Shown here piece after piece: positions 204 through 16,967 of a stretch of DNA of 25,204 nucleotides (positions are counted from its first letter, which is position 1; each line of letters opens with the position of its first letter). The notes below the pieces were generated by a model. It saw nothing but the letters and a program-made list of their open reading frames with translations. It was not told the DNA's origin and did no database searches. The stretch is taken from positions 1 to 25,204 of the forward strand of contig CAYXOZ010000005.1 in assembly GCA_964467135.1 (NCBI GenBank), given 5' to 3'. This stretch comes from an uncultured Dehalococcoidaceae bacterium. GTDB taxonomy: Bacteria > Chloroflexota > Dehalococcoidia > Dehalococcoidales > RBG-16-60-22. Position numbers and translations under genes: made by a program.

Positions 204-1118
204 ATGTCGGGAATTTTCTGGCATATTTTCACTTTCAGCGCGATATTTGTTTTTCTGGTAATTCTATTTTATCGCCTTCTGGCTATCGTCAGGCAACCGG
301 TCCATTTACGATGGGAACTGGCGCCGATACCGCATGAAAAGGGGAAGGGAAAATACGGTGGTTCCTACCTAGAAGAATACGAATGGTGGCGGAAACCGAG
401 AAAACATTCACGCATCGCTCCTATATTATATATGCTCCAGGAGATATTTCTGATGAGGGGCATATGGAAAAATAATCGGGGTCTATGGCCCTTTTCGTCA
501 TTACTTCATGGCGGGATTTACCTTTTCATCGTAACGCTTGTACTGGATATAGTTAACGCTGTGTTTATTATTACCGGCGTCCCGACCCAAATCCTCAATG
601 TGTTTCAAAATATTGCCTCGGTTTTGGCCCTGGCGGGGTATCTGGCGGGCGGCCTGGGGGCGACATCACTTATCCTGAAACGCCGGCTGGACAGCAACTA
701 CAGGGCGTTCACCACACGCGCGATGTATTTCAGGCTCGCGTTCCTGGGGGCGATATTTATCAGCGGCATCTGGGCATGGGCCGCCAGTGCAGCCTTTGCC
801 TCCGAAACTAGCCAGTTCATAAAAAATCTCATAACGCTTGAGAGCGGTATCTCGGCGGGCGTGCCTCTGACAACACACATTATCATATCACTGCTATTTA
901 TCGTCTATCTGCCGTTCACAGACATGCTCCACTTTATGGCTAAATATTTCACCTATCACGCGGTACGCTGGAACGATAATCCGCTGGATGAAAAGATGAA
1001 TAAGAAACTCGAGAGACTGATTAACAAACCGGTAGGCTGGTCGGCGCCGCATGCGGGGCCGGGTAAAAGCTGGGCGGAGATTGCCTCCGGGAAAAAAGAC
1101 AATGCCGAAAAAGCTTAA
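204..1118 (+). CDS. dsrM: DsrM-like / NarI-family membrane b-type cytochrome subunit
   Basis: 304 aa with about 5-6 hydrophobic helices. His102 (LLHGGIY) and the His225/His243 pair spaced 18 residues apart match NarI H187/H205. Lies directly upstream of, and overlaps, the dsrK-like gene. Confidence 0.75.
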   Translation: MSGIFWHIFTFSAIFVFLVILFYRLLAIVRQPVHLRWELAPIPHEKGKGKYGGSYLEEYEWWRKPRKHSRIAPILYMLQEIFLMRGIWKNNRGLWPFSSLLHGGIYLFIVTLVLDIVNAVFIITGVPTQILNVFQNIASVLALAGYLAGGLGATSLILKRRLDSNYRAFTTRAMYFRLAFLGAIFISGIWAWAASAAFASETSQFIKNLITLESGISAGVPLTTHIIISLLFIVYLPFTDMLHFMAKYFTYHAVRWNDNPLDEKMNKKLERLINKPVGWSAPHAGPGKSWAEIASGKKDNAEKA

Positions 1119-2700
1119 ACTTACCGATATATCAAAAAACGGAGAAGACCAGCTCAGCGGGGTCGACCTCCAGGAGCTGATGCCGCTGCCGCCGCCTTAC
1201 GATAAAAGCGAGGAGTTCCCCCCGGTGAAGCCTCTCACTGACGACCAGCGGGAGAGGCTGGAAAGCAATCTCGATGGCTTCTCGGCGCTGGCTTTGCCCC
1301 GCCCCAAAAACCGCGAGGAGGAACAGAAATATATCGGGCAGTTCATCTCCGGGTTGAAAAAGCTCCTCAGCAAAGAGTCCAACTGGACGTTCTTACAGCC
1401 CCTTCTCCTTTCCCTGGACTACTGCGCGCGCTGCCAGACCTGCAACGAAGCCTGCCATGTCTACACGGCCAGCGGCCAGAACGACCTCTACCGTCCCACC
1501 TACCGTTCCGAGATATTCCGTCGGCTGGTCAATAAATACGTCAAACACCAGGGCTCCAGGTTCGACGGGAATGACATCGAGCTCAACTGGACGACTGTCG
1601 CCCGACTTTACGAGCTCGCCTACCGCTGCAACCTGTGCCGCCGCTGCGCGCAGGCATGTCCCATGAGCGTGGATAACGCGCTTATCACCCGCGAGATACG
1701 CAAGCTTTTCAGCCAGGAGCTCGGCTGGGCGCCCCGGGAGCTCCACGAAAAGGGCACGGTCTTGCAGCTGGAGGTGGGCTCCCCTACCGGCCTGAGGCCG
1801 GATGTCGTTAAAGACAATATGGCGTTCCTGGACGAGGATTTCAGCGAAGCCACGGGTAGGAAAATAAAGACGCCCTGGGACAAAAAAGGCGCCGACGTCC
1901 TCATCATCCACTCCGCCGGGGACATCCTCTCTTTCCCGGAGAGCGTGGTGGCTTTCGGGATATTATGTAATGCCGCTGGCATCGACTGGACGCTGTCGTC
2001 GGAAGCGCCCGGCTATGACGGCGTCAACTACGGCCTGTTCTACGACGATATCCAGCTCGCCCGGATTGCCACCCGGCACGCGCAAATCGCCCGCAAGCTC
2101 GGGGTGAAAAAGATAGTCATGGGAGAATGCGGGCACGAGCATAAAGCCCTGATGACCGTCGCCGACCGGCTGCTCATGGGCGACCTCAATATACCGCGGG
2201 AAAGCGCCATGACCTTCCTGGAGGACATCGTTTTTCGCGGTAAAATAAAGTTCGACCCGTCGAAAAACGCTTTCCCCGTAACGCTCCACGACCCCTGCAA
2301 CATCGTCAGGAACCTGGGAATAGTCGAACCGCAACGTAAGGTCCTGCGTTATCTCTGCCCAAAGTTCCGGGAGATGGAGCCTCACGGAGTGGACAACTAC
2401 TGCTGCGGGGGCGGGGGCGGCCTCAGCGTGATGAACAACGTTAACTTTACCGACTGGAAGGTAAACGTCGCCGGGAGGATGAAATTTAAGCAGGTACTGG
2501 AAGCCTTCGCCGATGCGCCCGGGCCGGAGGTAAAAAAATATATCTGCGCCCCCTGCCTCAACTGCAAGCTGCAGTTCCGTGACATCCTCGAGCACTACGG
2601 GGCAAAAGAAAGGTCCGGCATCATCGTCGGCGGACTGGCCGAGCTCATCGTTAACGCGATGGTGGATATTAAAAAGCCTTTCATCAACCTGGCAGATTAA
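1102..2700 (+). CDS. dsrK: DsrK-like Fe-S oxidoreductase (HdrD/CCG family)
   Basis: Two CxxCxxCxxxC motifs (CARCQTCNEAC 1423-1455; CNLCRRCAQACP from 1627), plus GECGH, HDPCN, YCCGGGGG and CAPCLNCKLQF of the CCG domain. ATG 1102 (MPKKLKL, 17-nt overlap with the dsrM end) is preferred over the ORF-track start at 1051. Confidence 0.85.
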   Translation: MPKKLKLTDISKNGEDQLSGVDLQELMPLPPPYDKSEEFPPVKPLTDDQRERLESNLDGFSALALPRPKNREEEQKYIGQFISGLKKLLSKESNWTFLQPLLLSLDYCARCQTCNEACHVYTASGQNDLYRPTYRSEIFRRLVNKYVKHQGSRFDGNDIELNWTTVARLYELAYRCNLCRRCAQACPMSVDNALITREIRKLFSQELGWAPRELHEKGTVLQLEVGSPTGLRPDVVKDNMAFLDEDFSEATGRKIKTPWDKKGADVLIIHSAGDILSFPESVVAFGILCNAAGIDWTLSSEAPGYDGVNYGLFYDDIQLARIATRHAQIARKLGVKKIVMGECGHEHKALMTVADRLLMGDLNIPRESAMTFLEDIVFRGKIKFDPSKNAFPVTLHDPCNIVRNLGIVEPQRKVLRYLCPKFREMEPHGVDNYCCGGGGGLSVMNNVNFTDWKVNVAGRMKFKQVLEAFADAPGPEVKKYICAPCLNCKLQFRDILEHYGAKERSGIIVGGLAELIVNAMVDIKKPFINLAD

Positions 2701-2747
2701 TGTATACTGGGGGAGCTAAAGTATTACAATCAGGAAGGGTGAAGCCA

Positions 2748-3065
2748 ATGGCAAAAATGGAACTGGCCGGCAACACGTATGAAGTAGACGAGCATGGCTT
2801 TCTACAGGAGACCGCTAAATGGACCGAGGCAATCGCCCGGGCCTACGCCGTTAAAGAAAACGTCAACGAGCTCACGCCGGACCATTGGACGGCTATCAAT
2901 TACCTGAGGACTTACTACCTCCAGAATGGCATCTGCCCGATGATACGCCGGCTCGTTAAGGAGACCGGCTTTTCCCTGAAAAAACTTTACGACCTCTTCC
3001 CCAACGGGCCGGCCCAGTCCGCCTGTAAATGGGCGGGCGTACCCAAGCCGACAGGCTGCGTGTAG
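2748..3065 (+). CDS. dsrC: DsrC (TusE/DsrC/DsvC family) sulfur-carrier protein with both C-terminal cysteines
   Basis: 105 aa from ATG 2748 (purine-rich GGAAGGGTGA upstream). Motifs VDEHGFL, W..A, HW..INYLR.YY and LFP.GPA..AC..AG.PKPTGCV; Cys93-X10-Cys104. Confidence 0.9.
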   Translation: MAKMELAGNTYEVDEHGFLQETAKWTEAIARAYAVKENVNELTPDHWTAINYLRTYYLQNGICPMIRRLVKETGFSLKKLYDLFPNGPAQSACKWAGVPKPTGCV

Positions 3066-3083
3066 ATTATCACACGGTTTCTT

Positions 3084-3623
3084 TTATCTCCCGATACCTT
3101 CGGGCTTGCCGAGATACTTCGGCATGTTGCTGTAACCCTCGCTCATGGCATCATCGTGCCAGAAAGACCAGTCGAGTTTGGCACGGTGCTCTTTGGTGAG
3201 CAGCTGCGGATAGAACTTTTCCGTGTGCTTGAGTCCCTGGTTAATCTCGATGAATATCCAGGGCCGGACGGTCTTTTGCGGGTTCCAGGGGCCATGGATA
3301 AAGTTCGGCGGGATAAAGACGACCGTGCTTTCCGTGATGACATGCTTTTCCAGCTCCGGTCCCATGCACAGCTCCACCTCCGCCCCGAGGTCGTCGGGAC
3401 GGGCGGGGTCGGTGCCGATATGTATCAGTAACTCAGCTTCAGAGTGGATATGCGGCGGGTGCCCTATTTTCATGCGGGGCTCGGCGTGGGGGAGTACCCA
3501 GTGAATGAAATAGAAATTACTCCCGGCGATAGTTTTGCTGTCCATACGCTGCAGGATGGGGCCCATGATAAAGGGATAAGGCGGCGGATTGTTCTTCAGG
3601 AAATATCTATCATACTTTGCCAC
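3084..3623 (-). CDS. Cupin-like hypothetical protein
   Basis: 179 aa, GTG start with AAGGAGG upstream. Two cupin-type metal motifs, PHIHSEAE and IPPNFIHGP. Confidence 0.7.
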   Translation of the reverse strand: MAKYDRYFLKNNPPPYPFIMGPILQRMDSKTIAGSNFYFIHWVLPHAEPRMKIGHPPHIHSEAELLIHIGTDPARPDDLGAEVELCMGPELEKHVITESTVVFIPPNFIHGPWNPQKTVRPWIFIEINQGLKHTEKFYPQLLTKEHRAKLDWSFWHDDAMSEGYSNMPKYLGKPEGIGR

Positions 3624-3659
3624 TCCAGTGCCCTCCTTGACCGATGTTAATACGGGAAC

Positions 3660-3665
3660 ATTATA
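3660..3665 (-). promoter_or_regulatory. Putative sigma70 -10 element (TATAAT) for the cupin gene
   Basis: Perfect TATAAT on the minus strand about 20 nt upstream of the AAGGAGG RBS; no convincing -35. Confidence 0.4.
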
Positions 3666-3690
3666 CTACAGGCTATCCCGGAGAATCACG

Positions 3691-3720
3691 TTGACAGGGC
3701 CAGGCGGCGATAGTCATAAT
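3691..3720 (+). promoter_or_regulatory. Putative sigma70 promoter for the MBL-fold gene
   Basis: TTGACA (3691-3696), 18 nt, CATAAT (3715-3720); ATG at 3730. Confidence 0.55.
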
Positions 3721-3729
3721 TGAGTAAAT

Positions 3730-4368
3730 ATGGAAGACAAAATCATTATTAAAAGGCTGGTAGTGGGCTCGCTTTCCGCCAACTGCTACGTCGTCGGTAT
3801 GGCTGGCCAAGGCATGGTCATCGACCCCGGCGGCAACGCCGGAGAAATCCAACGGGCGATTGCCGGGTCCGGCCTGGATATTAAAATCATCGCGCTGACC
3901 CACGGGCACTCCGACCATATTGCGGCGCTGCGGGATATACAGGACCAGACCGGGGCGGAAGTGGCCATTCATACGGAAGACGCCGACTTCCTCGAAACCA
4001 GCTCCCAGTTCGGCATTTCCTACCGGACGCCACACCCGCCGGACCGGCTGCTCCACGAGGGGGACGTTATCGATATCGGCAATATGAGCTTTACGGTAAT
4101 ACACACCCCGGGGCATACACCCGGCAGCATCTGCCTGCTCAGCGGCGATAAAGTCTTCACCGGGGATACGCTCTTCTACCGGGGCATCGGCACCACCCTG
4201 ATGCCGGGGAGTAGCCGCTCCCAGCTAATCAATAGCATCCAGACCAGGCTGATGGCGCTGCCCGACGACACTATCATTTACCCCGGCCACGGCCGCGAGA
4301 CGACCATCGGCGCGGAGCGCCGTGACAATCCCTATGTCACCGGCAAAGCCGGTCGCGGCTACTGGTAG
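3730..4368 (+). CDS. MBL-fold metallo-hydrolase (glyoxalase II-like)
   Basis: Motifs THGHSDH, HTPGHT, GDTLF and YPGHG; 212 aa. Confidence 0.92.
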   Translation: MEDKIIIKRLVVGSLSANCYVVGMAGQGMVIDPGGNAGEIQRAIAGSGLDIKIIALTHGHSDHIAALRDIQDQTGAEVAIHTEDADFLETSSQFGISYRTPHPPDRLLHEGDVIDIGNMSFTVIHTPGHTPGSICLLSGDKVFTGDTLFYRGIGTTLMPGSSRSQLINSIQTRLMALPDDTIIYPGHGRETTIGAERRDNPYVTGKAGRGYW

Positions 4369-4595: not shown

Positions 4596-4814
4596 TTGCG
4601 AACAACCTTAGAAAAAACTTACCCGGAATATCTCACCACCGGTGTCGTGGCCAGGCACTGCGGCGTCAGTAAAGTGACCGTCCTGCGGTGGATTGAAAGG
4701 GGGAACCTGACGGCTTTCCGACTGCCCGGAGGGCAGAACCGGATACACCGGGACGACTTCTTCGCTTTCGCCGTCAGACACAGTATACCCATCAAGAAAA
4801 ACGATGACCAGTAA
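4596..4814 (+). CDS. Stand-alone excisionase/BldC-like (HTH_17, MerR-type) DNA-binding protein
   Basis: TTG start 6 nt after GGAGG; LTTGVVARHCGVSKVTVLRWIERGNLTAFRLPGGQNRI is a typical Xis/BldC-like winged HTH; 72 aa. Confidence 0.85.
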   Translation: MRTTLEKTYPEYLTTGVVARHCGVSKVTVLRWIERGNLTAFRLPGGQNRIHRDDFFAFAVRHSIPIKKNDDQ

Positions 4815-4904: not shown

Positions 4905-7900
4905 ATGTCCAGGTTCGAAAAGTCAACCATGTCACTCATCTTCCGCTATCTCCGCATCCTGATTGCCGCCGTCTTTCTCATCGGCTTTTTGCCCGCGCCG
5001 GCGCTGGCCGAGGGCACGCCGCCGGCAAATATCACCGACCTCGCGGCCGGCAGCCCCACGCACAACAGTATCGCCCTCAACTGGACGGCCCCCACCGATG
5101 ACGGACTGGCCACCCAGTATGAAATCCGGTACGCGACCACCGTTATCGGCAACGAAAACGCCTGGAACAGCGCCCAACCGGCGCAGAACGTTCCGCCGCC
5201 GCATACCGCCGGCACTCCGGAGAGCTTCGTTGTACCCAACCTCAGCGCCAATACCACCTATTTCTTCGCCGTCAAGACCCGGGACGATGAGGACCTTCTT
5301 TCCGGCCTGTCCAACTCCCCCTCCGCGACCACTTTATTATCGCCGACTTTCAGCATCACTCACAGCCAGAACCGCTATTCATTCATGCTCGCGGCGGGAG
5401 CCAATATTACCGAGACCTTCAACGTAACGTCATTGAATAATTTCACTGGGACCATCAACCTGGGTTTCGGCGGACCGCCGGAAATAGCCAATAACTCCTC
5501 GGTCACGCCCAACCAGGTCACCCTGTCACCCGGTCAAACGCAGGCAGTCGCCCTGAACATACGCGCCGGCGCCATGGCGCCTTCAGGTTCTTACCAGTGC
5601 GGACTCAACGGCAATGCCCCGGGCCAGCAGAAAAGCGCCTTTTTCACGGTCATCATCGGCGTGCCCGGGCAGCCGCTTTTATCAGCATCGCCGCCGGTGG
5701 TCGGTCCCGGAGGCCAGAGCAATATCTTCGCCGCGCAGTTCCCCGGCGCCGCTGACATCACCCTCAAATGGGACTCCGGCCCGAACGCCGGGCAGACCAT
5801 CACTTCGGGACAGACAACCGCGGAAGGGACCTGGAATACTTTATTGAGTATTCCGCCTCAGGTGCCCGGGGGAATCTTTATCCTGAAAGCGATTTCCGGC
5901 CAAGCCTCCGCCACCTGCCAGATAACGATTACCTCTGGCGCCGGCCCCGATTACCTTCTTTCCGCCTCCCCCCAGTTCGTTTCCATCACGCCCGGCCACT
6001 CCGCCAACGTCACTATTTACGTCCAATCTATTAGCGGCTTCAACAGCACCGTAACGCTTAATGCGGGCACCGCCCCCGGTGTGACCAGGAGTTTCTCGCC
6101 CACTAGCGTCACGCCCGCCAGCGGTGACACAGCATCCGCTATCCTGACCATCTCTGTAGCGGACTGGGCTTCCCCCAGCATGTACCAGTTGAACATCGAA
6201 GGGACCTGCGCCAGCCCGCCCATAAATAAGTTTACCAATATCAACCTGGACATCCAGCCGCAGGCGAACTGGGGCCCGGGTATCTCGCTATCGCAGTCCT
6301 ACGCCCGGGCCGGCGACATGATTACCGTCTCCGGCGCCAATTTCCCGCCGGCTACCCAGGGACAGGTGGTAACGATAAAAGAGGTATTTTCCAACACCAC
6401 GCTGCCGACCAACCCCGCCAGTATCACCGTCAACGGCGGCAGCTTTACCGGGACTTTCACCATCCCGTCCGGGATACCTTCCGGCAACTACCGCATTAAA
6501 GCCATCGTTCAGAGCACCGGCGACTTCGCCGAGAGGGACTTCCAGATTCTGGGGACCAGCGAGACCTTCACCCTGGGGGTATCACCGCAGTCGATGAGCG
6601 TGATGACGGAGCAGGACCACAACACGGCCATCGTTTCGGTGAATATCTTTTCCGTGGGCGGCAGCAGCGCTACCGTCAACCTGGCGCTGGAAGGCGTGCC
6701 GGGCTGGCTCACGTACCGGTTCGGCGCCCTGGCGGACAATACCCCGGCTACTGACGCCAATGCTGTATCCGTGCCCGCTGGCGGGTCAACCTCCGTTGAC
6801 CTTCAGCTTACCGCCAGCTTAACAGCGCCGACCGGCTCCTATCCGGTCACGATCAAAGGCTGGATAACGGCCAGCCCGGAACAGCGCGTCTCGTTACAGC
6901 TCATGATACAGCCGCCGTCCGGATTCGGTATGGCGGAGTTCACCCTCAGTCCCACCTTCGGGGAGAGCGGCCGGACGGTCACTTTCTCTGGCTCCGGCTT
7001 CACCGACTGCACGCCGAATGAAGTCAGGGCTCTTAATTTCGGCGGCATCGATATACTCGCCACCCAGAGCCTCCCCACCATCACCGTGCCTGCCTCCGGG
7101 GAGTCCGCGGGCAGGTTCTCCGGCACTTTCCGCGTGCCGGCGGCGCTAGCGCCGGGCACGTATCCGGTAGACATCAGAGTGGGCGATTCGCCCAGTAAAT
7201 TCATCGGCAAATCCTTCACGATAACCGGAGGCAGCGATACCTTCGTGCTACAGGCATCGCCGAGCTTCCTCTTTGTGCCTCAGGGCGGCCATATCACCAC
7301 CATGATACAGGTACAGGCCACCGGCTCCACGTCACCCACGGTTGCCCTGTCGCTGGAGGGATACCCGGCCAACGATATCGGCAGTCTCCTCAATCCCAAC
7401 AGCGTTACCGCGCCGCCAGGCGGCGTTGCCACCTCCGAGCTGACTCTGACCGCGCAGCCCTGGTTGCCGGCGGGCCATTACACGATTACCGTTAAGGGTA
7501 TCAGCGGCGCCGAGGTGCACCGTATCCCGCTGGAAATGGACGTGGCGCCGCCGGCCGGCATGAATATGGCTTCGATTTATCTCAGCCCGACGTCCGGGTA
7601 CGCTAGCACCTGGGTCACCATCAGCGGCAGCGGTTTCCAGGCGAACTCGAGCGTTACCCACCTCTATCTCGGACCGCCGACTGTCGACAACGACTGGGCG
7701 GGGCGCCTGCCGCCTATTGTGACCAACGAATCGGGGGCGTTTACCGCCGTTTTACAGATTCCATCAGTTCTGCCATCCGGCATGTACATGATTGAAGCGG
7801 TGACGGGCAACCCGCCCAACGACCGGAGGGCATCCGCCCAGTTTACCGTCTTCGGCAACGGGGCAAGTTTTAGCTTTAACCTATCTCCTAATATGATACA

Positions 7901-10900
7901 GGCACCGCCCGGTGCAACAGTAACGACATCCGTTAACGTGCAGTCGGTGGGGGCGTCCTCGTCCAACGTGACCCTCCGCGTCGAAGGCCCCCCGATAATC
8001 GAATGGCGTTTTGACGGCGGGGAGTGGGGAGCGCCTAAAACCGTCTCCCCGCCCATCGGCGCTTCCCTGGTATCCTCGCTGGAAATCCGGCCCAAGCCGG
8101 TGGCTCCCATGGGGCACTACTCGCTCGCGGTCAAAGCCGCCGCTGGCCAGCAAACAGAGATGCGTAACCTCGAGCTGGACATTGGCGCTTCCGCCGGATT
8201 TGACATGCCGATATTCTCGCTTAATCCCAATTCAGGTACGGCGGGCACTAACGTGTCCTTCAGCGGCTCGAACTTCCCGCCGGAAGCTAATATCACGGGA
8301 CTAACCTTCGGTGGGGCTAACATCACCCTCGGGCAAACGATTACCACCTCGGCGCAGCGCGCCTTTTCTGGCTCCTTCACCGTTCCCGCTACGCTGGGCG
8401 GTCAAGCCATCTCCCCGGGAACGTATGGCGTCAGGGTATACGTAGGCCAGGTTCAGGCGGAGACGCAGTTCTACGTTTACGGCGCCGATGATACCTTTAT
8501 GCTATCCTTATCTCCCAGTTATTTACAGGGCAGTCCCGGCATCCAGGTGCGTACATCCGGCCTGCTTAAAGCTTTAGCCGGCGCCGCCCCGACCGTTAAG
8601 ATGACGGTCAAGGGTCTGCCGCCTGGCGTGGAAACCGCCTGGAACGAAATCGTTCAACCCGTCTTTACCCTCGCCACACCGCCGGGAGGACAGAACAACT
8701 TCCAGCTGGGGCTGGTATTGCCCAACATGATACCGATGGGCATGTACCCGGCCGTCCTCGAAGGCTGGGTGGATACTAATGCGAACAACGTCTGGGACGC
8801 TAACGAAAAAATCAGTCGCGTCAATCTTGAGCTTTCGATTATGCCGCCCCAGGGCTATAACATGGGCATGCTTTCGCTCAATCCCAGCTTCGGCAGGGTG
8901 GGCGATACCATCACCTTCAGCGGCTCCGGGTTCGCCCGGAACACCGCGATTACCAGTTTGACCTTCGCCGGTAATAACATACTCATGGCGGATATCACTA
9001 CCTCCGATGACGACTCCGGCTCGTTCTCCGGGGTCTTCACCGTGCCCACCATGGGACCCGGCCGTTATCCGGTCGACGTCGTGGTAGGCGACCGCCGGGG
9101 CGGCTTTGAGTTCCAGATAGTCTCCGGCGACCAGAAGTTCAGCGTCAACGCCTCGCCGGGCTGGCTGGCGCGGCCGGCGGGAAATACCGGCAACGTCAAT
9201 ATCCAGGTAAGGTCTCTCGTCGCCACTCCGCCCAGTCCCTCCGTGGTCCTGCGGATAGAAGGACTGCCGATGGGTGTCACGCCGAGCTTCACTACCGCCA
9301 ACGTGACCCCGCCCGTCGGCGCGATGGAAAGTCGTGACCTTCAACTGACGATATCGAGCGGCTGCCCGATGGGCAACTATCCGATATCCGTCCGCGCCTA
9401 TAACGCCGCCAATCCCTCCGAGGAAATCTGGACGAACTTTACCCTCGAGGTAACGCCCTCCGCCGGTTTCATGGATATGGGCATGGCGATGGTCACCATA
9501 TCGCCCACTTTCGGTTCTGCCGGCGACCAGATAACGGTCAGCGGCTACGGCTTCCCCAAGAGCCAGAGCCTGACCTCCATACGACTCGGCCCGCAGAACA
9601 TCACCCCCGGCGTGGCTACTACCACCGATGACACCGGCGCTTTTTCCGCGGTAATTACCGTGCCATCCCTGCCTTCCGGGATGCACCCGCTGGAAGTCAA
9701 CGTACAGAACACCATCAGGAATCTGCCTTTCAATATCATGGGAGCGAGCGACACGTTCTCGCTGGAAGTCAGCCCCAACTGGCTGCAGCCTATACCTGCC
9801 GGCGACCCCAACGGACGCCAGATTGCCATCAGCGTTAACGCGCTACCCGGCAAGACGACCGCCGTCACTCTGAGGACGGAAGGGCTCTTCGCGGCTTACG
9901 GCACCATCACCGAGGTCTGGAACCCGACCTCGAAGTCGGTCAGCATTACCGATACGGGCGGCGCCGCCACGGCTACTCTGATACTAATCGCCTCGGAAAA
10001 CCTGCCGCCCGGCCCCTACCCCTTTAATATCGTGGCTATCGACGGCAGCAATAACCGGCGCGATTTCCATATGGAGTTCATGGTAGGCCCGCCGGCCGGC
10101 TTCATGAACAACGACTGGATGCAGCAGCAGGGCGTCTTCTTCCCGGAGATATTCCTATCACCCAAGAGCGGGTCGGTCGGCACGCAGGTGACGTTCACCG
10201 GCACTAACCTGCCCGCGGGCGCCAGCATTACCGCTATTAACTTCGCCGGTAACACGGTGCCGCTCCCCGCCGGCGGCCTCACGGCGGATGACACCGGCAG
10301 CCTTTCCGGCTCGTTCATCGTCAGCGAGGCCTGGAACCTGCCCGCCGGCGGCATGTACTGGGTGGACTTCCGACTGCAAAAGGACACCTGGTGGCAGAAC
10401 ATCGGCAAGGACTTTAACCTGATGCGGGCGGACGCCGCCTTCAGCCTGGAAGCCACGCCCAACTTTATACCGCCGATACAACCGGGGGGCAACGGGCAGA
10501 CAAAAATCAACGTTAAAGCCCTCGGCTATAACAGCGCCAACGTCTCGCTGGCGGTCATGGAGAGCCTGAACGGGTGGGGTATCCCGGGCGGGGTGCAGTT
10601 ACACTGGAACGCCGTCGACGGACCCGCCACGACCATCGCTAACGTCCCGGGCGGCGGCCAGACGGCGAAAGACTTTTACCTGGTCGCTTCCAACCCCGGC
10701 CATTACATGATAAACATCGTGGGCTGGATTGACAGCAACGCCAACCAGCTCCTCGAAAAGAACATACCTTCGGAAGCGCAATCCGAGTTCGGCATACCTT
10801 TGAACTTCGACGTCGCGCCGCCCGAGGGATTCCAGAACTGGAACATGGACACGATGATGGACCAGATGGACATGTCCAGTGACGATAAATACCTCTTTTA

Positions 10901-13900
10901 TTTCCCGGAGATTGTCCTGAACCCCGGTATGGGGCAGGCGGACACTAAAGTGAATATCAATGCCTCTGACTTCCCCGCTAACGCCGTGGTAACAAGCCTC
11001 CGCTTCGCCGGAACTAATCTACCCGTTCCCGCCGGCACCGCCGCGGACAGCAACGGGGACTTTTCGCTTGTCTTTAACGTCCCCAAGACCATGTGGAGCG
11101 CCAATATCACCGCCGGCTGGTACGACGTCGAGTTGGCGGCCGCCAAAGCCGGCGAGCCGGAAGTGCGCATCAGGAAGCCCTTCCAGGTGACCGATGCCAA
11201 CGTCGCCTTCACCCTCTGGGCCGAGCCCAACTGGCTGCCGCCGATTCCTCCCGGCGGCAGCGGCTCGGCGCTCATCCGCGTGAAGTCAATGGGCGTGGCC
11301 GCCAACGTAACGCTCTCGATGGATAAAATCCCGCCGGGTGTCACCACTACCTTCTCCGACGCGACGCTTGAGCTTAGCCCGGGCGGCTCGGAGAGCGCGA
11401 CCCTTACCCTGTCCCCGACGAACATCCCGCCGGGGCATTACGGCGCGGAAATCCGGGGCGCCGCTACCATCGGCGGGACCCCCAAGACCTTCTATACGCA
11501 TATCGAGTTCGAGGTGCAGCCGTCCACGATGTTTAAAGACACCGACTGGATGCAGCAGCAGGGTATCTGGTTCCCGGAAATAACCCTTAACCCCACCGCG
11601 GGACCGGTCAAGACCAAGGTAACGGTAAAAGCCACCGACTTCCCCGCCGGCGCTAACATCACCAACCTGCGTTTCGCCGGCAGGGAGCTCCCCATACCGG
11701 TTGGCACCGCCGCCAATAACGACGGCGACGCCGACCTTATCTTCAACGTGCCCGACGGCTACGGGGTCGGCCAGTACATGGTCGAAGTGGTCGCCACATC
11801 CGGCGCGCAGCCGGTGTTCATCGCCAAGCCCTTCTTCATCGAGGATGCCAACGTCACCTTCAAGCTCAACGTCGTGCCGGGCTTCATCGCCGGCGTGACG
11901 CAGGGCAGCTCGGGCAATACGACCATCTTTATTGAGTCGACCGGCCAGGCCCTGACCGTGCAGCTATACGTGGACGGGCTGCCGCCGGGCGTTATCGGAC
12001 TGTTTGAAAGCCAGAGCGTCAACGTGCCGCCGGGCGGCTCGAGCAACACCCGGCTGACCATCACCACCCGCGCTTCGACCGGTCCGGGCATGTACCCCCT
12101 GACCATACGGGGCGTCAGCGGCAGCTCTACCAGGACAGTACCTTTCGGCTTCGGCGTCATGCCGCCGGCCAGCTTCAACATGCCCAAGTTCACCCTCGAC
12201 CCCGACTACGCCCCCGCCGGCTACGACAATAAACAGTACAAGATAGCCTTCTCCGGGACCGGGTTCCCGGCCAGCCAGAGCGTCAGCAGTATCACCTTCG
12301 GCGCGCAGTCGGTTGCTATTCCGGCTAACCTGGCTACCGACGCCAACGGCAATTTCAGCGGCGTCTTCCAGATGCCCATCGGTCTGACCCCCGGCACCTA
12401 CGACGTCCGCATCGCCGTCGCCGACGGCCACGGAGGTTTTATCTATGACGCGCGGCCGTTCTCCATCAGGGGCTCTCAATCTAAATTCATGCTCAAAGCA
12501 TCGCCGCCTTACCTGCCGCCGGTGCTCCAGGGCGGACAGGGCACGACCATGATCACCGCCCAGTCCGTGGGCACTGTCGCGGCTAACGTTACCCTCTCCG
12601 TCGATGGTTTAGCGCCGGGTATCACGGCTGTCTTTACGCCGGGCAGCACTGTGACCGTTACCCCCGGCACCTCCAGCAGCGCCACGCTGACTCTTAACGT
12701 CAGCGCCAGCACGCCGCCCGGTCCTTATCCCCTGAGCATACGCGGCATCAGCGGCAGTGAAATGATAGTGATACCGCTCGGCTTCAGCGTCATGTCCAAT
12801 ATCGGCGGCGGAGGCGGTTACGCCTCCATTACCATCAATCCGCCTCAGGCCAGGCCCGGCGAGCATATCGGCGTATCCGGCGCCGGCTTTACCAGCGGCG
12901 CCACTATCACCCTGACGGCGGCGCCACCCGGCGCGGCCACCCCGATTAACATCACACCCGGGACGATACAGGTACTGAGCGACGGCACCTGGGCCACGGA
13001 AATCACCGTGCCTCCGGCCGCGCAGGTACCGCCCGGCTCTTATATCATTAAAGCCAGCGACGGCACCCTTGCCGCCAGGTGCCCGTTCAACATCGTCCCG
13101 GCCACCGGCGCCGACTTCTTCCTTACCGTCTCGCCGCAGTCCATCCAGGTGGTCAGGGGCCAGAACGCTAACACCACCATCAAGTTGACCTCCAAGAACG
13201 GGTTCAACCAGGTTATCCAGTTCAGCGTTGGTTTCCTGGCTCCCGGCGTCACCGCTACTTTCCGGGACGCCGCCGGTAATATCATCGGCCAGTACCAGGG
13301 CTCCCCGGGCGGCGTTCGGCAGACCATCGCGCCGGTAGCCCTGACCCCGGTGCCCGGTGAAGAACTGGTGGTCATCACCAACATCGCCGTGGATATAGCG
13401 ACACCGTTAGGTCCTTACGATATTCCGCTCGAGGTCAAGACCAGCACTATCGCCCGGGCAGTGCCGTTAGGTCTCATGGTAGTTTCCACCGGCGCCAACT
13501 TGAACCTATCGCCTTCAAGCGGGCCGGCGGACACCAATATCAGTCTCTCCGGTTCGGGCTTTACCGCCGGTGAGACCATCACCGCAAAATTCGCCGGCAA
13601 TAATATCACCACGGTGCCCGGCACCGTCACAGCGGGGCAGGACGGCACCTTTACCGCCGTTATCAGCGCTCCGGCGATGAACCCCGGTATCTACGCGGTC
13701 AGAGTCACCGGAGGCACCAGCGGCATCGTTATCGATAGACCGTTTAGTCTACAGCCATCCGCGGTTGATTCTTTCATCCTCTATACCAATCCGATGAAAG
13801 TCGATATCCCCAGGGGCGGCTCCGGCACGGCTATCATCAAGATTGAGCCGCTGGGCGGCTTACAGTCCTCGGTCGTCCTCAGCGTCACCGGGCTCAACGC

Positions 13901-15920
13901 CGTCAGCGGCGCCACCTCCACCATCCTGCCGGCGTCAACGATAACACCGAGTATCGCCACGCCGACCACCGCCACGCTGACCATCAACGTCCCGGCGGGC
14001 GCCACGGCGGGGAGATACCCGCTGACCGTCACTGCCACCAATGGCGCCATCACCCAGACGCGGAGCATCACCCTTAATATAGTGCCCCCGGCTAATACGC
14101 CTGATTTCGCTATCAGCCTTGCCCCCAATACCATCCCTATCAATCCAAGTTCGAGCGCCAACACCACGGTAACGGTAACCGCCTTTAACGGCTTCAGCGG
14201 CACCGTCGCCCTGGCCGTGGCCATGGCCGATGCGAGCGCCTTGCCGGCCAGCATCACCTATACCGCGGGGTCGGTAACGGCTTCCGCCAACACCGGTCTG
14301 GGCAAACAGACGGTCGTCTTTAATGCGAACGCCAGCGCCCTGCCGGGCACCTGGACATTCAGGATAACCGGCACCAGCGGCGCCCTGACCCACAGCACGG
14401 ACGTCATGGTCATCTCGACACCCTCCGGGACAACGGTGACCACCTACGCCTCGCCGCTCCTCGACCCGAGCACCGTTACCTCGAGCACGCCGATTGATAT
14501 GACGGCCCCCTGGGGCGACGTCATCACCATCAACGGCATCATCAACGACGGCGGCGAAGCTGGTACCATTACCCCGTCTAACATCGATGTGCTGCCGGAT
14601 ACCCTGGCCGATCTTCCGGAAGGCGCCACCGACATGCTGGGCAGGGTAACCAATATCGATTCCAGCGTTCCCGTCGACGGGGTGGACTGGGACATCGGCT
14701 TCCCGTTTGACCCCGCCGACCTTGAGGCCGCCGGCCTCGCGGAAGAAAACCTGAAGGTAGCCTACCTCGACCCCGATACGGGGGAGTGGACGGAGGTGAC
14801 CACCACCGTCGATACCGACGCTAATATGGCCTACGCCTCGCCGGAGCACTTCAGCTCCTGGACGCTGCTCGCCACGACCAACCCGCCCCCGTCCCGGGTC
14901 GTTAATACCGGCGGTGGCGGCGGAGGCGGCGGCGCGACCGGCGTCACCTCGGTGTCTACCTCCGTCACCGGCAGCGGCAAGTTCGTCGTCGAGGTCACGG
15001 CGGAGTCAGCCGACGGCAAAGTGGAGATAACCATACCGAAAGACACTGTCGGCAAGAACAGCGTGGGCCAACGCTTGAGCTTCATCTCCATCAAACCGCA
15101 GGCCAATGCCCCCGCTCCTCCCGCCGATGCCAAAATCATCGGACTCGTTTACGATATCGGCCCCGGCGGCTCTACCTTCAACCCGGCCATATACGTCAAG
15201 TTCGACTATCAGGAATCGTCTCTACCCGCCGGTATAGTCGAGGAGGACCTGGTGATAGCCACCTTCCAGGACGGAAAATGGGTTAACCTTGCGGGCGGTG
15301 TCGTCGACAAGGCGAAAAATACGATTACCGCACCGGTGAACCATTTCTCGTCATTCACCGTCATGGCGCCGACGGCCGTAGCCCGTTTCAGCATCACCGG
15401 CCTTAAAGTAGCGCCGTCCGTGAGCTCTCCCAACGACCCTGTTACCGTCATCGCCACCGTTGCCAATACCGGTGAGCTCTCCGGCGACTACGAGGTCATC
15501 CTGACCATAAACGAGAGCGTGGCAGTTACGGAAAAAATCACGCTGGCCGCCCATACCAGCCAGGATGTCGATTTTACCATCGCCCCGAATAAAGTCGGGA
15601 CCTATGCCATCGATGTCAACGGCATGACCGCCACGCTGACCGTCAGGGAAGAAACAGCCGGCGCGGACGAGGTGCCGTCCGCCGGGGGTGAAACACCCGG
15701 AGAAATGGCGCCTGCCCCGGCTGAGGAGCCGTCCGCCGCAGAAACATTGCCTCCCGGAGTACAAGAGGAACCCCAGGCAACGACGGTGCCCGCTCTCTCG
15801 GAGCCGGAAACCGGTGAGTTCCCGATGTTCATGATATGGATTATCATCGGCATCATCGCCTTGAGTGCCGGTATCGGCATATCCGTCCGGCGGATACGCT
15901 CCAGCAGCAAGAATTCCTGA
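4905..15920 (+). CDS. Giant (3671 aa) secreted, C-terminally membrane-anchored multi-Ig-domain surface protein (putative adhesin)
   Basis: AGGAGGT RBS; signal peptide ending PALA|EG; N-terminal FN3-like domain; about 28 repeated beta-sandwich units; two HFS-ending domains; a CARDB-like domain; a Pro/Glu/Ala/Thr-rich stalk; a hydrophobic helix (about 15822-15887) followed by RRIR. Confidence 0.9.
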   Translation: MSRFEKSTMSLIFRYLRILIAAVFLIGFLPAPALAEGTPPANITDLAAGSPTHNSIALNWTAPTDDGLATQYEIRYATTVIGNENAWNSAQPAQNVPPPHTAGTPESFVVPNLSANTTYFFAVKTRDDEDLLSGLSNSPSATTLLSPTFSITHSQNRYSFMLAAGANITETFNVTSLNNFTGTINLGFGGPPEIANNSSVTPNQVTLSPGQTQAVALNIRAGAMAPSGSYQCGLNGNAPGQQKSAFFTVIIGVPGQPLLSASPPVVGPGGQSNIFAAQFPGAADITLKWDSGPNAGQTITSGQTTAEGTWNTLLSIPPQVPGGIFILKAISGQASATCQITITSGAGPDYLLSASPQFVSITPGHSANVTIYVQSISGFNSTVTLNAGTAPGVTRSFSPTSVTPASGDTASAILTISVADWASPSMYQLNIEGTCASPPINKFTNINLDIQPQANWGPGISLSQSYARAGDMITVSGANFPPATQGQVVTIKEVFSNTTLPTNPASITVNGGSFTGTFTIPSGIPSGNYRIKAIVQSTGDFAERDFQILGTSETFTLGVSPQSMSVMTEQDHNTAIVSVNIFSVGGSSATVNLALEGVPGWLTYRFGALADNTPATDANAVSVPAGGSTSVDLQLTASLTAPTGSYPVTIKGWITASPEQRVSLQLMIQPPSGFGMAEFTLSPTFGESGRTVTFSGSGFTDCTPNEVRALNFGGIDILATQSLPTITVPASGESAGRFSGTFRVPAALAPGTYPVDIRVGDSPSKFIGKSFTITGGSDTFVLQASPSFLFVPQGGHITTMIQVQATGSTSPTVALSLEGYPANDIGSLLNPNSVTAPPGGVATSELTLTAQPWLPAGHYTITVKGISGAEVHRIPLEMDVAPPAGMNMASIYLSPTSGYASTWVTISGSGFQANSSVTHLYLGPPTVDNDWAGRLPPIVTNESGAFTAVLQIPSVLPSGMYMIEAVTGNPPNDRRASAQFTVFGNGASFSFNLSPNMIQAPPGATVTTSVNVQSVGASSSNVTLRVEGPPIIEWRFDGGEWGAPKTVSPPIGASLVSSLEIRPKPVAPMGHYSLAVKAAAGQQTEMRNLELDIGASAGFDMPIFSLNPNSGTAGTNVSFSGSNFPPEANITGLTFGGANITLGQTITTSAQRAFSGSFTVPATLGGQAISPGTYGVRVYVGQVQAETQFYVYGADDTFMLSLSPSYLQGSPGIQVRTSGLLKALAGAAPTVKMTVKGLPPGVETAWNEIVQPVFTLATPPGGQNNFQLGLVLPNMIPMGMYPAVLEGWVDTNANNVWDANEKISRVNLELSIMPPQGYNMGMLSLNPSFGRVGDTITFSGSGFARNTAITSLTFAGNNILMADITTSDDDSGSFSGVFTVPTMGPGRYPVDVVVGDRRGGFEFQIVSGDQKFSVNASPGWLARPAGNTGNVNIQVRSLVATPPSPSVVLRIEGLPMGVTPSFTTANVTPPVGAMESRDLQLTISSGCPMGNYPISVRAYNAANPSEEIWTNFTLEVTPSAGFMDMGMAMVTISPTFGSAGDQITVSGYGFPKSQSLTSIRLGPQNITPGVATTTDDTGAFSAVITVPSLPSGMHPLEVNVQNTIRNLPFNIMGASDTFSLEVSPNWLQPIPAGDPNGRQIAISVNALPGKTTAVTLRTEGLFAAYGTITEVWNPTSKSVSITDTGGAATATLILIASENLPPGPYPFNIVAIDGSNNRRDFHMEFMVGPPAGFMNNDWMQQQGVFFPEIFLSPKSGSVGTQVTFTGTNLPAGASITAINFAGNTVPLPAGGLTADDTGSLSGSFIVSEAWNLPAGGMYWVDFRLQKDTWWQNIGKDFNLMRADAAFSLEATPNFIPPIQPGGNGQTKINVKALGYNSANVSLAVMESLNGWGIPGGVQLHWNAVDGPATTIANVPGGGQTAKDFYLVASNPGHYMINIVGWIDSNANQLLEKNIPSEAQSEFGIPLNFDVAPPEGFQNWNMDTMMDQMDMSSDDKYLFYFPEIVLNPGMGQADTKVNINASDFPANAVVTSLRFAGTNLPVPAGTAADSNGDFSLVFNVPKTMWSANITAGWYDVELAAAKAGEPEVRIRKPFQVTDANVAFTLWAEPNWLPPIPPGGSGSALIRVKSMGVAANVTLSMDKIPPGVTTTFSDATLELSPGGSESATLTLSPTNIPPGHYGAEIRGAATIGGTPKTFYTHIEFEVQPSTMFKDTDWMQQQGIWFPEITLNPTAGPVKTKVTVKATDFPAGANITNLRFAGRELPIPVGTAANNDGDADLIFNVPDGYGVGQYMVEVVATSGAQPVFIAKPFFIEDANVTFKLNVVPGFIAGVTQGSSGNTTIFIESTGQALTVQLYVDGLPPGVIGLFESQSVNVPPGGSSNTRLTITTRASTGPGMYPLTIRGVSGSSTRTVPFGFGVMPPASFNMPKFTLDPDYAPAGYDNKQYKIAFSGTGFPASQSVSSITFGAQSVAIPANLATDANGNFSGVFQMPIGLTPGTYDVRIAVADGHGGFIYDARPFSIRGSQSKFMLKASPPYLPPVLQGGQGTTMITAQSVGTVAANVTLSVDGLAPGITAVFTPGSTVTVTPGTSSSATLTLNVSASTPPGPYPLSIRGISGSEMIVIPLGFSVMSNIGGGGGYASITINPPQARPGEHIGVSGAGFTSGATITLTAAPPGAATPINITPGTIQVLSDGTWATEITVPPAAQVPPGSYIIKASDGTLAARCPFNIVPATGADFFLTVSPQSIQVVRGQNANTTIKLTSKNGFNQVIQFSVGFLAPGVTATFRDAAGNIIGQYQGSPGGVRQTIAPVALTPVPGEELVVITNIAVDIATPLGPYDIPLEVKTSTIARAVPLGLMVVSTGANLNLSPSSGPADTNISLSGSGFTAGETITAKFAGNNITTVPGTVTAGQDGTFTAVISAPAMNPGIYAVRVTGGTSGIVIDRPFSLQPSAVDSFILYTNPMKVDIPRGGSGTAIIKIEPLGGLQSSVVLSVTGLNAVSGATSTILPASTITPSIATPTTATLTINVPAGATAGRYPLTVTATNGAITQTRSITLNIVPPANTPDFAISLAPNTIPINPSSSANTTVTVTAFNGFSGTVALAVAMADASALPASITYTAGSVTASANTGLGKQTVVFNANASALPGTWTFRITGTSGALTHSTDVMVISTPSGTTVTTYASPLLDPSTVTSSTPIDMTAPWGDVITINGIINDGGEAGTITPSNIDVLPDTLADLPEGATDMLGRVTNIDSSVPVDGVDWDIGFPFDPADLEAAGLAEENLKVAYLDPDTGEWTEVTTTVDTDANMAYASPEHFSSWTLLATTNPPPSRVVNTGGGGGGGGATGVTSVSTSVTGSGKFVVEVTAESADGKVEITIPKDTVGKNSVGQRLSFISIKPQANAPAPPADAKIIGLVYDIGPGGSTFNPAIYVKFDYQESSLPAGIVEEDLVIATFQDGKWVNLAGGVVDKAKNTITAPVNHFSSFTVMAPTAVARFSITGLKVAPSVSSPNDPVTVIATVANTGELSGDYEVILTINESVAVTEKITLAAHTSQDVDFTIAPNKVGTYAIDVNGMTATLTVREETAGADEVPSAGGETPGEMAPAPAEEPSAAETLPPGVQEEPQATTVPALSEPETGEFPMFMIWIIIGIIALSAGIGISVRRIRSSSKNS
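5346..14420 (+). repeat. Intragenic protein-level tandem array: (A-B)x13 followed by A-A
   Basis: A units read F.L..sP.....G......v.s......V.L.v.GlPpGv...L.l.......G.Yp..v.g. B units read i.LsP..G..G..vt.sGsgF......l.F.G......td..G.Fsg.f.vP....G.Y.v.v. Counted by eye; boundaries approximate. Confidence 0.75.
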
Positions 15921-16580: not shown

Positions 16581-16967
16581 ATGCCAAAAGACATGGCCCA
16601 TAAAATACGTCGATTCCTCAGGAAAATCGACCGTAATGGCAAGGGTTTTACCCTGGTGGAACTGCTTATCGTCGTGGCTATCCTGGGCGTCCTGGCGGCG
16701 GTCGTCCTGCCTAACGTCACCGGTCTCGCCGGCGAAGGGCAGGAGGAAGCCGCCAAGGCCGAGCTGGTGACCGTGCAGACAGCCATGGACACGATGATGG
16801 CGAAAAGCCACATCACCTCGGTCACCGCCACCACCACCACTGACGATATGTCGGCTTTTCCGACAGGACGGCCGTTATATCCGGATTACCTGAGGACTGA
16901 CACCACCAAGGGCACTTATTCCTGTACCATCACCGGTCTGGTTACCCAGGTATCTAAAGGCTATTAG
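16581..16967 (+). CDS. Type IV pilin (PilA-like prepilin)
   Basis: GGAGGT RBS; basic 22-aa leader; class III cleavage site KG|FTLVELLIVVAILGVLAAVVLP with Glu at +5. Confidence 0.92.
   Translation: MPKDMAHKIRRFLRKIDRNGKGFTLVELLIVVAILGVLAAVVLPNVTGLAGEGQEEAAKAELVTVQTAMDTMMAKSHITSVTATTTTDDMSAFPTGRPLYPDYLRTDTTKGTYSCTITGLVTQVSKGY

Follow-up and report, generated by a model that had tools for sequence, protein, structure and literature searches.

A giant surface protein from an uncultured Dehalococcoidales bacterium: strictly alternating Ig-like domains on a putatively self-cleaving membrane-anchored base

Anoxic sediments and aquifers harbour abundant Dehalococcoidales, among them the organohalide respirers of bioremediation. 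How do these apparently wall-less cells attach to particles or partners? A stretch of 25,204 nucleotides (nt), hereafter the window, from an uncultured member of the order whose genome is 82% complete, puts this question in concrete form: its positions 4905-15920 (+ strand) are occupied by a single open reading frame (ORF) of 3671 codons plus the stop, coding for a surface protein of 3671 amino acids (aa). What is this giant protein built of, how is it held at the cell, and what might it do there? In our view it is probably an accessory fibrillar rod of the adhesin-like type, exported by the Sec route and anchored in the membrane in type I orientation; its base would cleave itself and give way under force, and the rod would be used along with type IV pili. 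The protein, so far uncharacterised, is a variant of known fibrillar surface proteins, namely fibrillar adhesins and MAIN/ZU5-bearing proteins, and not a new kind of system; its family is a concrete candidate for a long attachment fibre that carries its own release point.

A hydropathy scan of the whole protein reveals two hydrophobic segments only. The first, aa 8-37, belongs to a Sec-type signal peptide (aa 1-35, nt 4905-5009), whose N-terminus matches that of the relative P0002 and whose cleavage is predicted between PAPALA and EG; the second, aa 3639-3662, is a transmembrane helix followed by the basic cytoplasmic tail RRIRSSSKNS (nt 15819-15917). All family members terminate in a hydrophobic helix and then in R/K-rich residues. 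The signal peptide and the C-terminal helix thus define a type I topology, in which about 3,600 residues form the ectodomain. Starting from its distal end, this is composed of an FN3 domain (aa 36-149, nt 5010-5351; Pfam fn3 at aa 44-128, 34.3 bits with a cut-off of 25), 13 super-repeats of two domain types, A and B (aa 150-2965, nt 5352-13799), a terminal pair of A-type domains (aa 2966-3170, nt 13800-14414), two domains that carry an H-F-S motif (HFS domains; aa 3171-3330, nt 14415-14894, and aa 3344-3490, nt 14934-15374) with a Gly8 hinge between them (nt 14910-14933), a CARDB domain (aa 3491-3580, nt 15375-15644) and an acidic stalk rich in Pro, Ala and Glu (aa 3581-3636, nt 15645-15812), for which the structural model has a pLDDT below 50. 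The CARDB match (aa 3500-3571) reaches 20.9 bits within the whole protein and 24.7 bits when the piece is scanned alone, with a cut-off of 22.7.

A preliminary description of this DNA, made from the sequence without database searches, had proposed the same layout, and ORF, Pfam, hydropathy and profile parsing now agree on it; FN3, 28 A or B domains, two HFS domains and CARDB give a total of 32 domains. Pfam recognizes TIG in five stretches of the whole protein (65.1 bits, cut-off 20.9) and NPCBM_assoc/NEW3 (PF10633) in one clear stretch only (29.7 bits, cut-off 24.4), with MG2 also matched, while the NCBIfam scan returned nothing meaningful. Neither collection contains a match to a catalytic domain, a lectin or an adhesive family, as the description had noted for catalytic domains and tip lectins; RTX repeats were not found with Pfam, nor an LPXTG system in Pfam and in a sortase search of the genome. 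Other readings of the protein were discarded: that of a glycoprotein, since N-x-S/T sequons are not enriched (41, compared with 36.5 +/- 5.6 in shuffled sequences), and that of a role in electron transfer or haem binding, the protein having only six Cys residues. DUF7498 (PF24328) is given in precomputed tables for all relatives, faintly where so marked, but was set aside because its model has no match in this genome when run locally.

The strict alternation of A and B, which had been noticed at the outset, is confirmed by two kinds of comparison. Self-comparison of the protein shows a period of about 210-220 aa, and all-against-all BLAST of 28 segments produces a checkerboard, with mean scores of 31 bits for A-A, 41 for B-B and 11 for A-B pairs. 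Hidden Markov models (HMMs) built separately for the two types, from 15 A and 13 B copies respectively, read the array as ABABABABABABABABABABABABABAA, i.e. (AB)x13 followed by AA, with each domain at E <= 6e-19; the alternation is far above chance. Unrestrained profile iteration was abandoned in favour of these separately built profiles, since it fuses A with B owing to their distant relationship: direct profile comparison (hhalign) gives a probability of 92% with 8% identity over 62 columns and, by this measure, the two types are very distant relatives. As to their identity, the earlier call of B as IPT/TIG is solid at the sequence level, with 7 of the 13 B copies and none of the A copies matching Pfam TIG (PF01833) at E <= 0.01 (best 1.4e-7); the call of A as NEW3 is weak, NPCBM_assoc being matched at the same threshold by 3 of the 15 A copies and by no B copy, and A would be best called NEW3/CARDB-like.

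An AlphaFold model of A7-B8-A9-B10 (aa 788-1206), based on an alignment of 49 A-B-A-B windows from paralogues and orthologues, resolves into four distinct sandwiches, each with 7-8 strands (pLDDT 90.1, pTM 0.76). Each type is a complete sandwich, and the possibility, raised in the preliminary description, that A and B might be halves of one fold can be dismissed; moreover, the high pTM for four domains suggests that the A-B junctions are fixed. By estimate, the rod exceeds 100 nm in length. The same description had stated that a match over most of the length to a characterised S-layer or adhesin family would speak against its reading; no such match exists in Pfam, NCBIfam or PDB sequences, and no SLH domain is present. 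Searches of the PDB with A-B-A-B returned generic multi-Ig arrays only at the level of fold (TM 0.2-0.28; ciliary central-pair proteins and C3/A2M-type complement/macroglobulin chains) and a best E of 4e-4 at the level of sequence profiles. No known family covers the full length, whether in Pfam and NCBIfam or among the sequences and folds of the PDB. At the A-to-B junctions of units 8-10 (window 10090-11580, aa ~1730-2225) inserts rich in Met, Trp, Gln and Asp are found (e.g. NWNMDTMMDQMDMSSDDKYLFYFPEI); longer relatives such as P0004 contain additional duplicates of just these units.

The A-B-A-B profile is matched by 30,318 representative proteins at E <= 1e-3. Among the best 150 of these matches, three belong to the orthologue family; about 22 of the remaining 147 alternate strictly, the rest being A-only or B-only homo-arrays, in agreement with the earlier remark that alternation is unusual beside homo-repeat adhesins. 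The named alternating proteins come from Chloroflexota/Dehalococcoidales and from Nitrososphaerota/Thermoproteota and bear generic automatic names only. The A-only, B-only and alternating arrays of uncultured Chloroflexota and Nitrososphaerota/Thermoproteota are entered as CARDB-, cohesin-, SdrD B-like or nidogen-like domain-containing protein and draw on the two domain families of the giant protein, with strict alternation in about 22 representative clusters among the matches surveyed; none of them is characterised, and most are shorter (750-2750 aa). On the sequences compared, alternation is a minority, uncharacterised architecture common to wall-less Chloroflexota and archaea.

How old is the array, and is each of its units maintained? 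The window DNA is contained in wetland and freshwater-sediment metagenomes, and metagenomes supply 17 relatives of the giant protein with 52-83% identity and a length of 2,820-4,603 aa, the 2,820-aa one being partial; in a scan of GTDB species genomes, orthologues occur in uncultured Dehalococcoidales, in "Dehalococcoidaceae" and in Chloroflexi RBG_16_60_22 and RBG_16_56_11. Strict alternation holds in every relative, the number of AB units ranging over 9-16, and nearly all have the terminal AA; alternating relatives include a 30%-identical protein of 3,033 aa and 10 units, encoded beside archaeal-type coenzyme A genes. In a maximum-likelihood tree of 65 AB units, units of different species that occupy the same position cluster together with support of 100/100, on stems of 0.5-1.3 and with tips of 0.1-0.3, and for the end units this pairing extends to the protein encoded in the archaeal-type context. 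The same tree traces the differences in unit number to local duplication around units 9-10 or to loss of the first unit. Within the giant protein, domains of the same type are only 16-36% identical, and the giant gene contains neither direct DNA repeats of at least 40 nt nor a tandem array; the divergence of the copies, noticed at the outset, is therefore real, and the repeat phylogeny adds positional orthology to it. Since each unit has its positional orthologues and repeats are missing at the DNA level, the array must be old and stable. Over the length of the rod the identity to orthologues stays even (52-94%), which, together with the lack of DNA repeats, indicates purifying selection over its whole length; the least conserved segment is the stalk (32-46% identity), and values are also low for the transmembrane helix and the signal peptide.

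Positional orthology and the lack of DNA repeats rule out rapidly evolving or concerted repeats. Membership among periscope proteins is likewise rejected, highly identical tandem DNA repeats being absent and domains of the same type being so diverged. The same divergence makes protection against misfolding a weak explanation for the alternation, and the fixed A-B pair is better read as a structural super-repeat, the unit of both structure and duplication. The rod thus offers a natural, strictly alternating two-domain super-repeat, with 13 units each kept as an orthologue, which could be useful for the study of rigid hetero-domain junctions.

Two irregularities were observed in the family. In three genomes (G210:C1, G062:C27 and G171:C15) the orthologous AB array is split over 2-3 consecutive open frames of 1,400-3,100 aa, which may reflect frameshifts, assembly errors or decaying copies. 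In locus L005 a separate ORF of 98 aa (3577-3873) with a CarboxypepD_reg domain lies just upstream of the giant gene; this domain is N-terminally fused in other relatives, and the separate ORF may reflect a split tip or else a problem with the start or the reading frame.

The base of the rod is where the protein departs from a simple stalk. An AlphaFold model of aa 3171-3600 has a pLDDT of 76 overall, with 82-94 for the second HFS domain plus CARDB and 84-93 for CARDB itself. Its best Foldseek matches are the ankyrin ZU5-ZU5-UPA tandem (4d8o, E 9e-10) and ZU5A-ZU5B (3ud1, E 3e-7), together with single ZU5 chains (3f59 and 3kbu, TMt 0.54-0.60) and UNC5b; 3g5b is matched at E 2.7e-4. A PDB profile search with the HFS domain gave a chance match only (SGT1, E 0.68). 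The H-F-S motifs lie at aa 3315-3317 (nt 14847-14855) and aa 3480-3482 (nt 15342-15350), and DSSP places the motif between the last two strands of the model, in the turn before the last strand. The first domain is 71-90% identical to its orthologues, and 8 of these, the one from the archaeal-type context among them, keep H, F, S and W without exception. In all 15 aligned copies of the HFS domain H and F are invariant and S or T is kept, with a mean column identity of just 53%, and H-[FL]-[ST] persists with few exceptions in copies from 23 loci, other phyla included. Fold type and the H-x-S/T motif assign the HFS domains, as far as model and sequence go, to the ZU5/GAIN_B/MAIN superfamily.

ZU5, GPS and Nup98 have been described as one autoproteolytic superfamily, and ZU5 has been noted on bacterial surface proteins (Zhang et al. 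2012, PMC3482391). In bacterial GAIN_B-like "MAIN" domains the HFS motif is cut between F and S and the fragments stay associated; the usual layout of these proteins is a signal peptide, adhesion or enzyme domains, the MAIN domain and an anchor (Brogan & Rudner, bioRxiv 10.64898/2026.05.12.724683). The giant protein has the same order (signal peptide, adhesion-type domains, HFS beta-sandwich, anchor) as MAIN proteins, whose prototype is YfkN of B. subtilis, and shares with the wider ZU5/GPS/Nup98 superfamily the ZU5 fold match and the position of H-F-S in a turn that precedes the last strand. It differs in having two tandem copies, in its anchor, a plain transmembrane helix behind CARDB and an acidic stalk instead of a sortase signal, SLH or cell-wall-binding domains, and in its host, a wall-less member of the Chloroflexota, a phylum unmentioned in the text of the Brogan & Rudner preprint. 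Because motif, position of the motif and protein layout all match those of MAIN proteins, both HFS domains are likely to cleave themselves between F and S. The proposed mechanism is the following: a long, probably stiff rod, made of the distal FN3, the 13 A-B super-repeats and two extra A domains, would stand on two ZU5/GAIN_B-like domains that autocleave at the F-S bond of the motif through an N-O acyl shift, in the manner of MAIN domains; after cleavage the rod would be held only by beta-strand complementation to a stub of CARDB, stalk and transmembrane helix, and tension could then pull it off this stub, which would act as a break-away anchor and leave a shed fibre.

The HFS domains might instead be purely structural ZU5-like modules that never cleave, with H-F-S kept for folding and the rod permanently anchored. 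To our knowledge, the ZU5 domains of ankyrin and UNC5B, the closest structural matches, do not self-cleave; the His is lost in a few relatives (GGFS, TQFA, SSFS), and the matches to Pfam ZU5 are weak and below the curated level (5 of 15 HFS-domain copies, best E 1.8e-4). However, such a role accounts poorly for a motif that is kept in every aligned copy and in other phyla while the rest of the domain drifts, and that is identical to the cleaved HFS of MAIN domains in the same position and in the same protein layout. Permanent anchoring is accordingly a serious but clearly less probable option than self-cleavage.

The C-terminal part of the protein turned out to be generic which, together with the ZU5/GAIN-like identity of the HFS domains, goes beyond the preliminary description. 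A C-terminal profile run against 301 genomes of the order detects it in 206 of them (E <= 1e-20). Most matches are limited to CARDB and the second ZU5-like domain and fall in ORFs of 300-2,000 aa, with several per genome in many cases. The cassette starts with polyGly (the Gly8 hinge in the giant protein) and continues with a ZU5-like domain, CARDB, a Pro-rich stalk where the sequence is complete, a transmembrane helix and a basic tail; it ends two more proteins of this genome, where polyGly also precedes the ZU5-like domain. One of them (L037, G000:C4:2500-6800, ORF 1959-3911) consists of a cohesin, polyGly, a ZU5-like domain with HLS and CARDB, its end being masked by a run of X that makes the stalk and anchor region unreadable. 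Directly upstream, ORF 933-1952 codes for a secreted protein with cohesin, He_PIG and dockerin; from their sequences, the two could possibly form a minimal cohesin-dockerin display pair, held by the same cassette as the giant protein. The other (L036, G000:C2:23500-28200, ORF 1604-3820, 738 aa) has two cytoplasmic XRE-type helix-turn-helix (HTH) domains and, beyond a first transmembrane helix, an ectodomain in which a Tyr/Gly-rich stretch is followed by Gly8, a ZU5-like domain (motif HFT), CARDB and a Pro/Thr stalk that leads to another transmembrane helix; it looks like a membrane-tethered transcription factor with a probable self-cleaving GAIN/ZU5-like outer module.

No transpeptidase of the penicillin-binding protein (PBP) type and no sortase (PF04203) were found in the 82%-complete genome, and the cell appears to be without peptidoglycan, so that a plain membrane anchor fits. 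Sortase anchoring through an LPXTG-type PETG was rejected: PETG precedes the helix only in the three closest proteins (P0001-P0003), with APDTG in P0009, and the motif is not conserved. Tentatively, the succession polyGly-ZU5/GAIN-like (H-F/L-S/T)-CARDB-stalk-transmembrane helix could be a general force-sensitive, break-away display device that replaces sortase and SLH in wall-less Dehalococcoidales, and the giant rod, deployed with pili, the mechanical probe of the cell. If this were true, the clients of the cassette would range from a 32-domain rod to a cohesin scaffold and a membrane-tethered double-HTH transcription factor, and a pull on the ectodomain of the latter could signal to the cytoplasm, as in adhesion GPCRs (G-protein-coupled receptors) or Notch. 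The widespread cassette itself appears to extend the newly described bacterial GAIN-like (MAIN) type of self-cleaving domain to proteins anchored in the membrane, in a phylum that lacks peptidoglycan.

The genes around the giant gene bear on both its function and its dispensability. The window contains, in order, dsrM-like, dsrK-like, dsrC, an MBL (metallo-beta-lactamase) hydrolase, HTH1, the giant gene, HTH2, a pilin, a PAS kinase, REC, a REC-PAS kinase, REC and pilB. HTH1, a small HTH_17-type DNA-binding gene (nt 4596-4814, + strand), lies 90 nt upstream of the giant gene and is probably the first gene of its transcription unit; the type IV pilin gene (N_methyl; nt 16581-16967, + strand), identified by family match, follows HTH2. 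Among six other Chloroflexota loci, HTH1 is found upstream in five (none was called in L001), HTH2 and pilin downstream in five, and PAS kinases after them in all six. Because of these neighbours (HTH genes, type IV pilin, PAS kinases and pilB), the giant gene would probably be switched on together with the pili and serve to attach the cell to particles or other cells.

The AB array is wholly absent from four congeneric genomes, which are 85-96% complete and two of which are in 4-8 contigs. In two of the four, where the flanking DNA can be aligned with 73-82% nucleotide identity, HTH1 and HTH2 almost adjoin and the 11-kb giant gene is missing exactly between them: one (L038) has just 27 bp between the two aligned HTH blocks, and the other (L039, G261:C6) retains at 3949-4109 a 160-nt remnant, with a frameshift, of the part that encodes the signal peptide and the beginning of FN3 (corresponding to window 4957-5104), followed by a GC-rich hairpin. 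Intact flanks and the remnant show that the giant gene was lost by deletion and is thus dispensable, which argues for an accessory function and against a core S-layer role.

Besides the behaviour of the ankyrin and UNC5B domains, several points weigh against the rod with a self-cleaving base and pilus-linked deployment that is favoured here. The first ZU5-like domain is modelled moderately (pLDDT 56-82), and the likeness to MAIN is drawn from motif, fold type and layout. The distal end offers no recognised ligand-binding tip, consisting only of FN3, or of CarboxypepD_reg plus FN3 in longer relatives; co-regulation with the pili is deduced from gene order, and no RNA run holding the giant gene was found. 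Finally, the incompleteness of the genome leaves the absence of PBP and sortase short of proof.

The lack of a recognised adhesive or lectin domain would suit a passive spacer or protective brush without a specific ligand, which keeps phages, predators and surfaces off the fragile membrane or sets the distance between cells. Variation in unit number between species, the rigid junctions predicted by AlphaFold and a uniform conservation in which the tip is neither variable nor specially conserved are also compatible with this. However, the long-term keeping of each unit at its position implies more than filler, identical DNA repeats such as permit rapid length switching in periscope-type proteins are missing, the conserved link with the pilin and regulator locus suits attachment, and a break-away base is most sensible if the tip binds something; a mere spacer is therefore unlikely. 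More improbable still is an S-layer or main envelope (canopy) protein, a lattice subunit on a C-terminal transmembrane anchor like the archaeal stalked S-layer proteins: the seeming lack of peptidoglycan synthesis, the stalk and C-terminal helix that recall archaeal S-layer anchoring, the relatives in Nitrososphaerota and Thermoproteota (one adjoining glycosyltransferase genes) and the uniform conservation of the rod speak for it, but the deletion in four congeners, the patchy distribution within the family, the absence of any S-layer family match, the ordinary frequency of sequons and a 32-domain monomer, atypical as a lattice subunit, all speak against it.

An adhesin-like rod with a releasable base can be compared with several known systems. 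With the fibrillar adhesins (Monzon, Lafita & Bateman; bioRxiv 10.1101/2020.12.07.414375, PMC9210967) the giant protein shares a long tandem Ig-like stalk, here of 28 domains, a C-terminal anchor, here a transmembrane helix, and an N-terminal distal end; their stalks repeat one family whereas this one alternates two, and the recognised adhesive domain that is part of their definition was not found with Pfam and NCBIfam, the distal end holding only FN3. An anchor of the transmembrane type occurs in only about 10% of fibrillar-adhesin-like proteins without a known anchor (Monzon et al., bioRxiv 10.1101/2020.12.07.414375, PMC9210967). Giant homo-repeat adhesins (SiiE, Bap, LapA/MpIBP-type RTX proteins and the 51-domain adhesin of Mobiluncus, PMC10619420) belong to the same size class and have a similar all-beta, Ig-like rod at the cell surface; unlike the giant protein, they repeat one domain type, often as near-identical DNA repeats, and use a type I secretion system (T1SS/RTX) or sortase.

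A parallel for the alternation itself is offered by SasG/Aap of staphylococci, where strict A-B alternation also leads to an elongated surface rod with the pair as the repeat unit. In SasG/Aap, G5 and E domains, both flat three-stranded sheets, alternate in a rigid rod, and E folds only beside G5. Their folds are unrelated to those of the giant protein, both units of which are complete sandwiches; furthermore, SasG repeats are near-identical, whereas the copies described here are highly diverged and have positional orthologues, and SasG is anchored by sortase and carries a lectin tip.

A last observation concerns the upstream part of the locus, where the dsrM-like, dsrK-like and dsrC genes form a cassette (window 204-3065). 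In the congeners, the dsrK-like frame is interrupted by one in-frame TAG or TGA within a conserved match; this could represent a selenocysteine or otherwise recoded codon, or a sequencing error.

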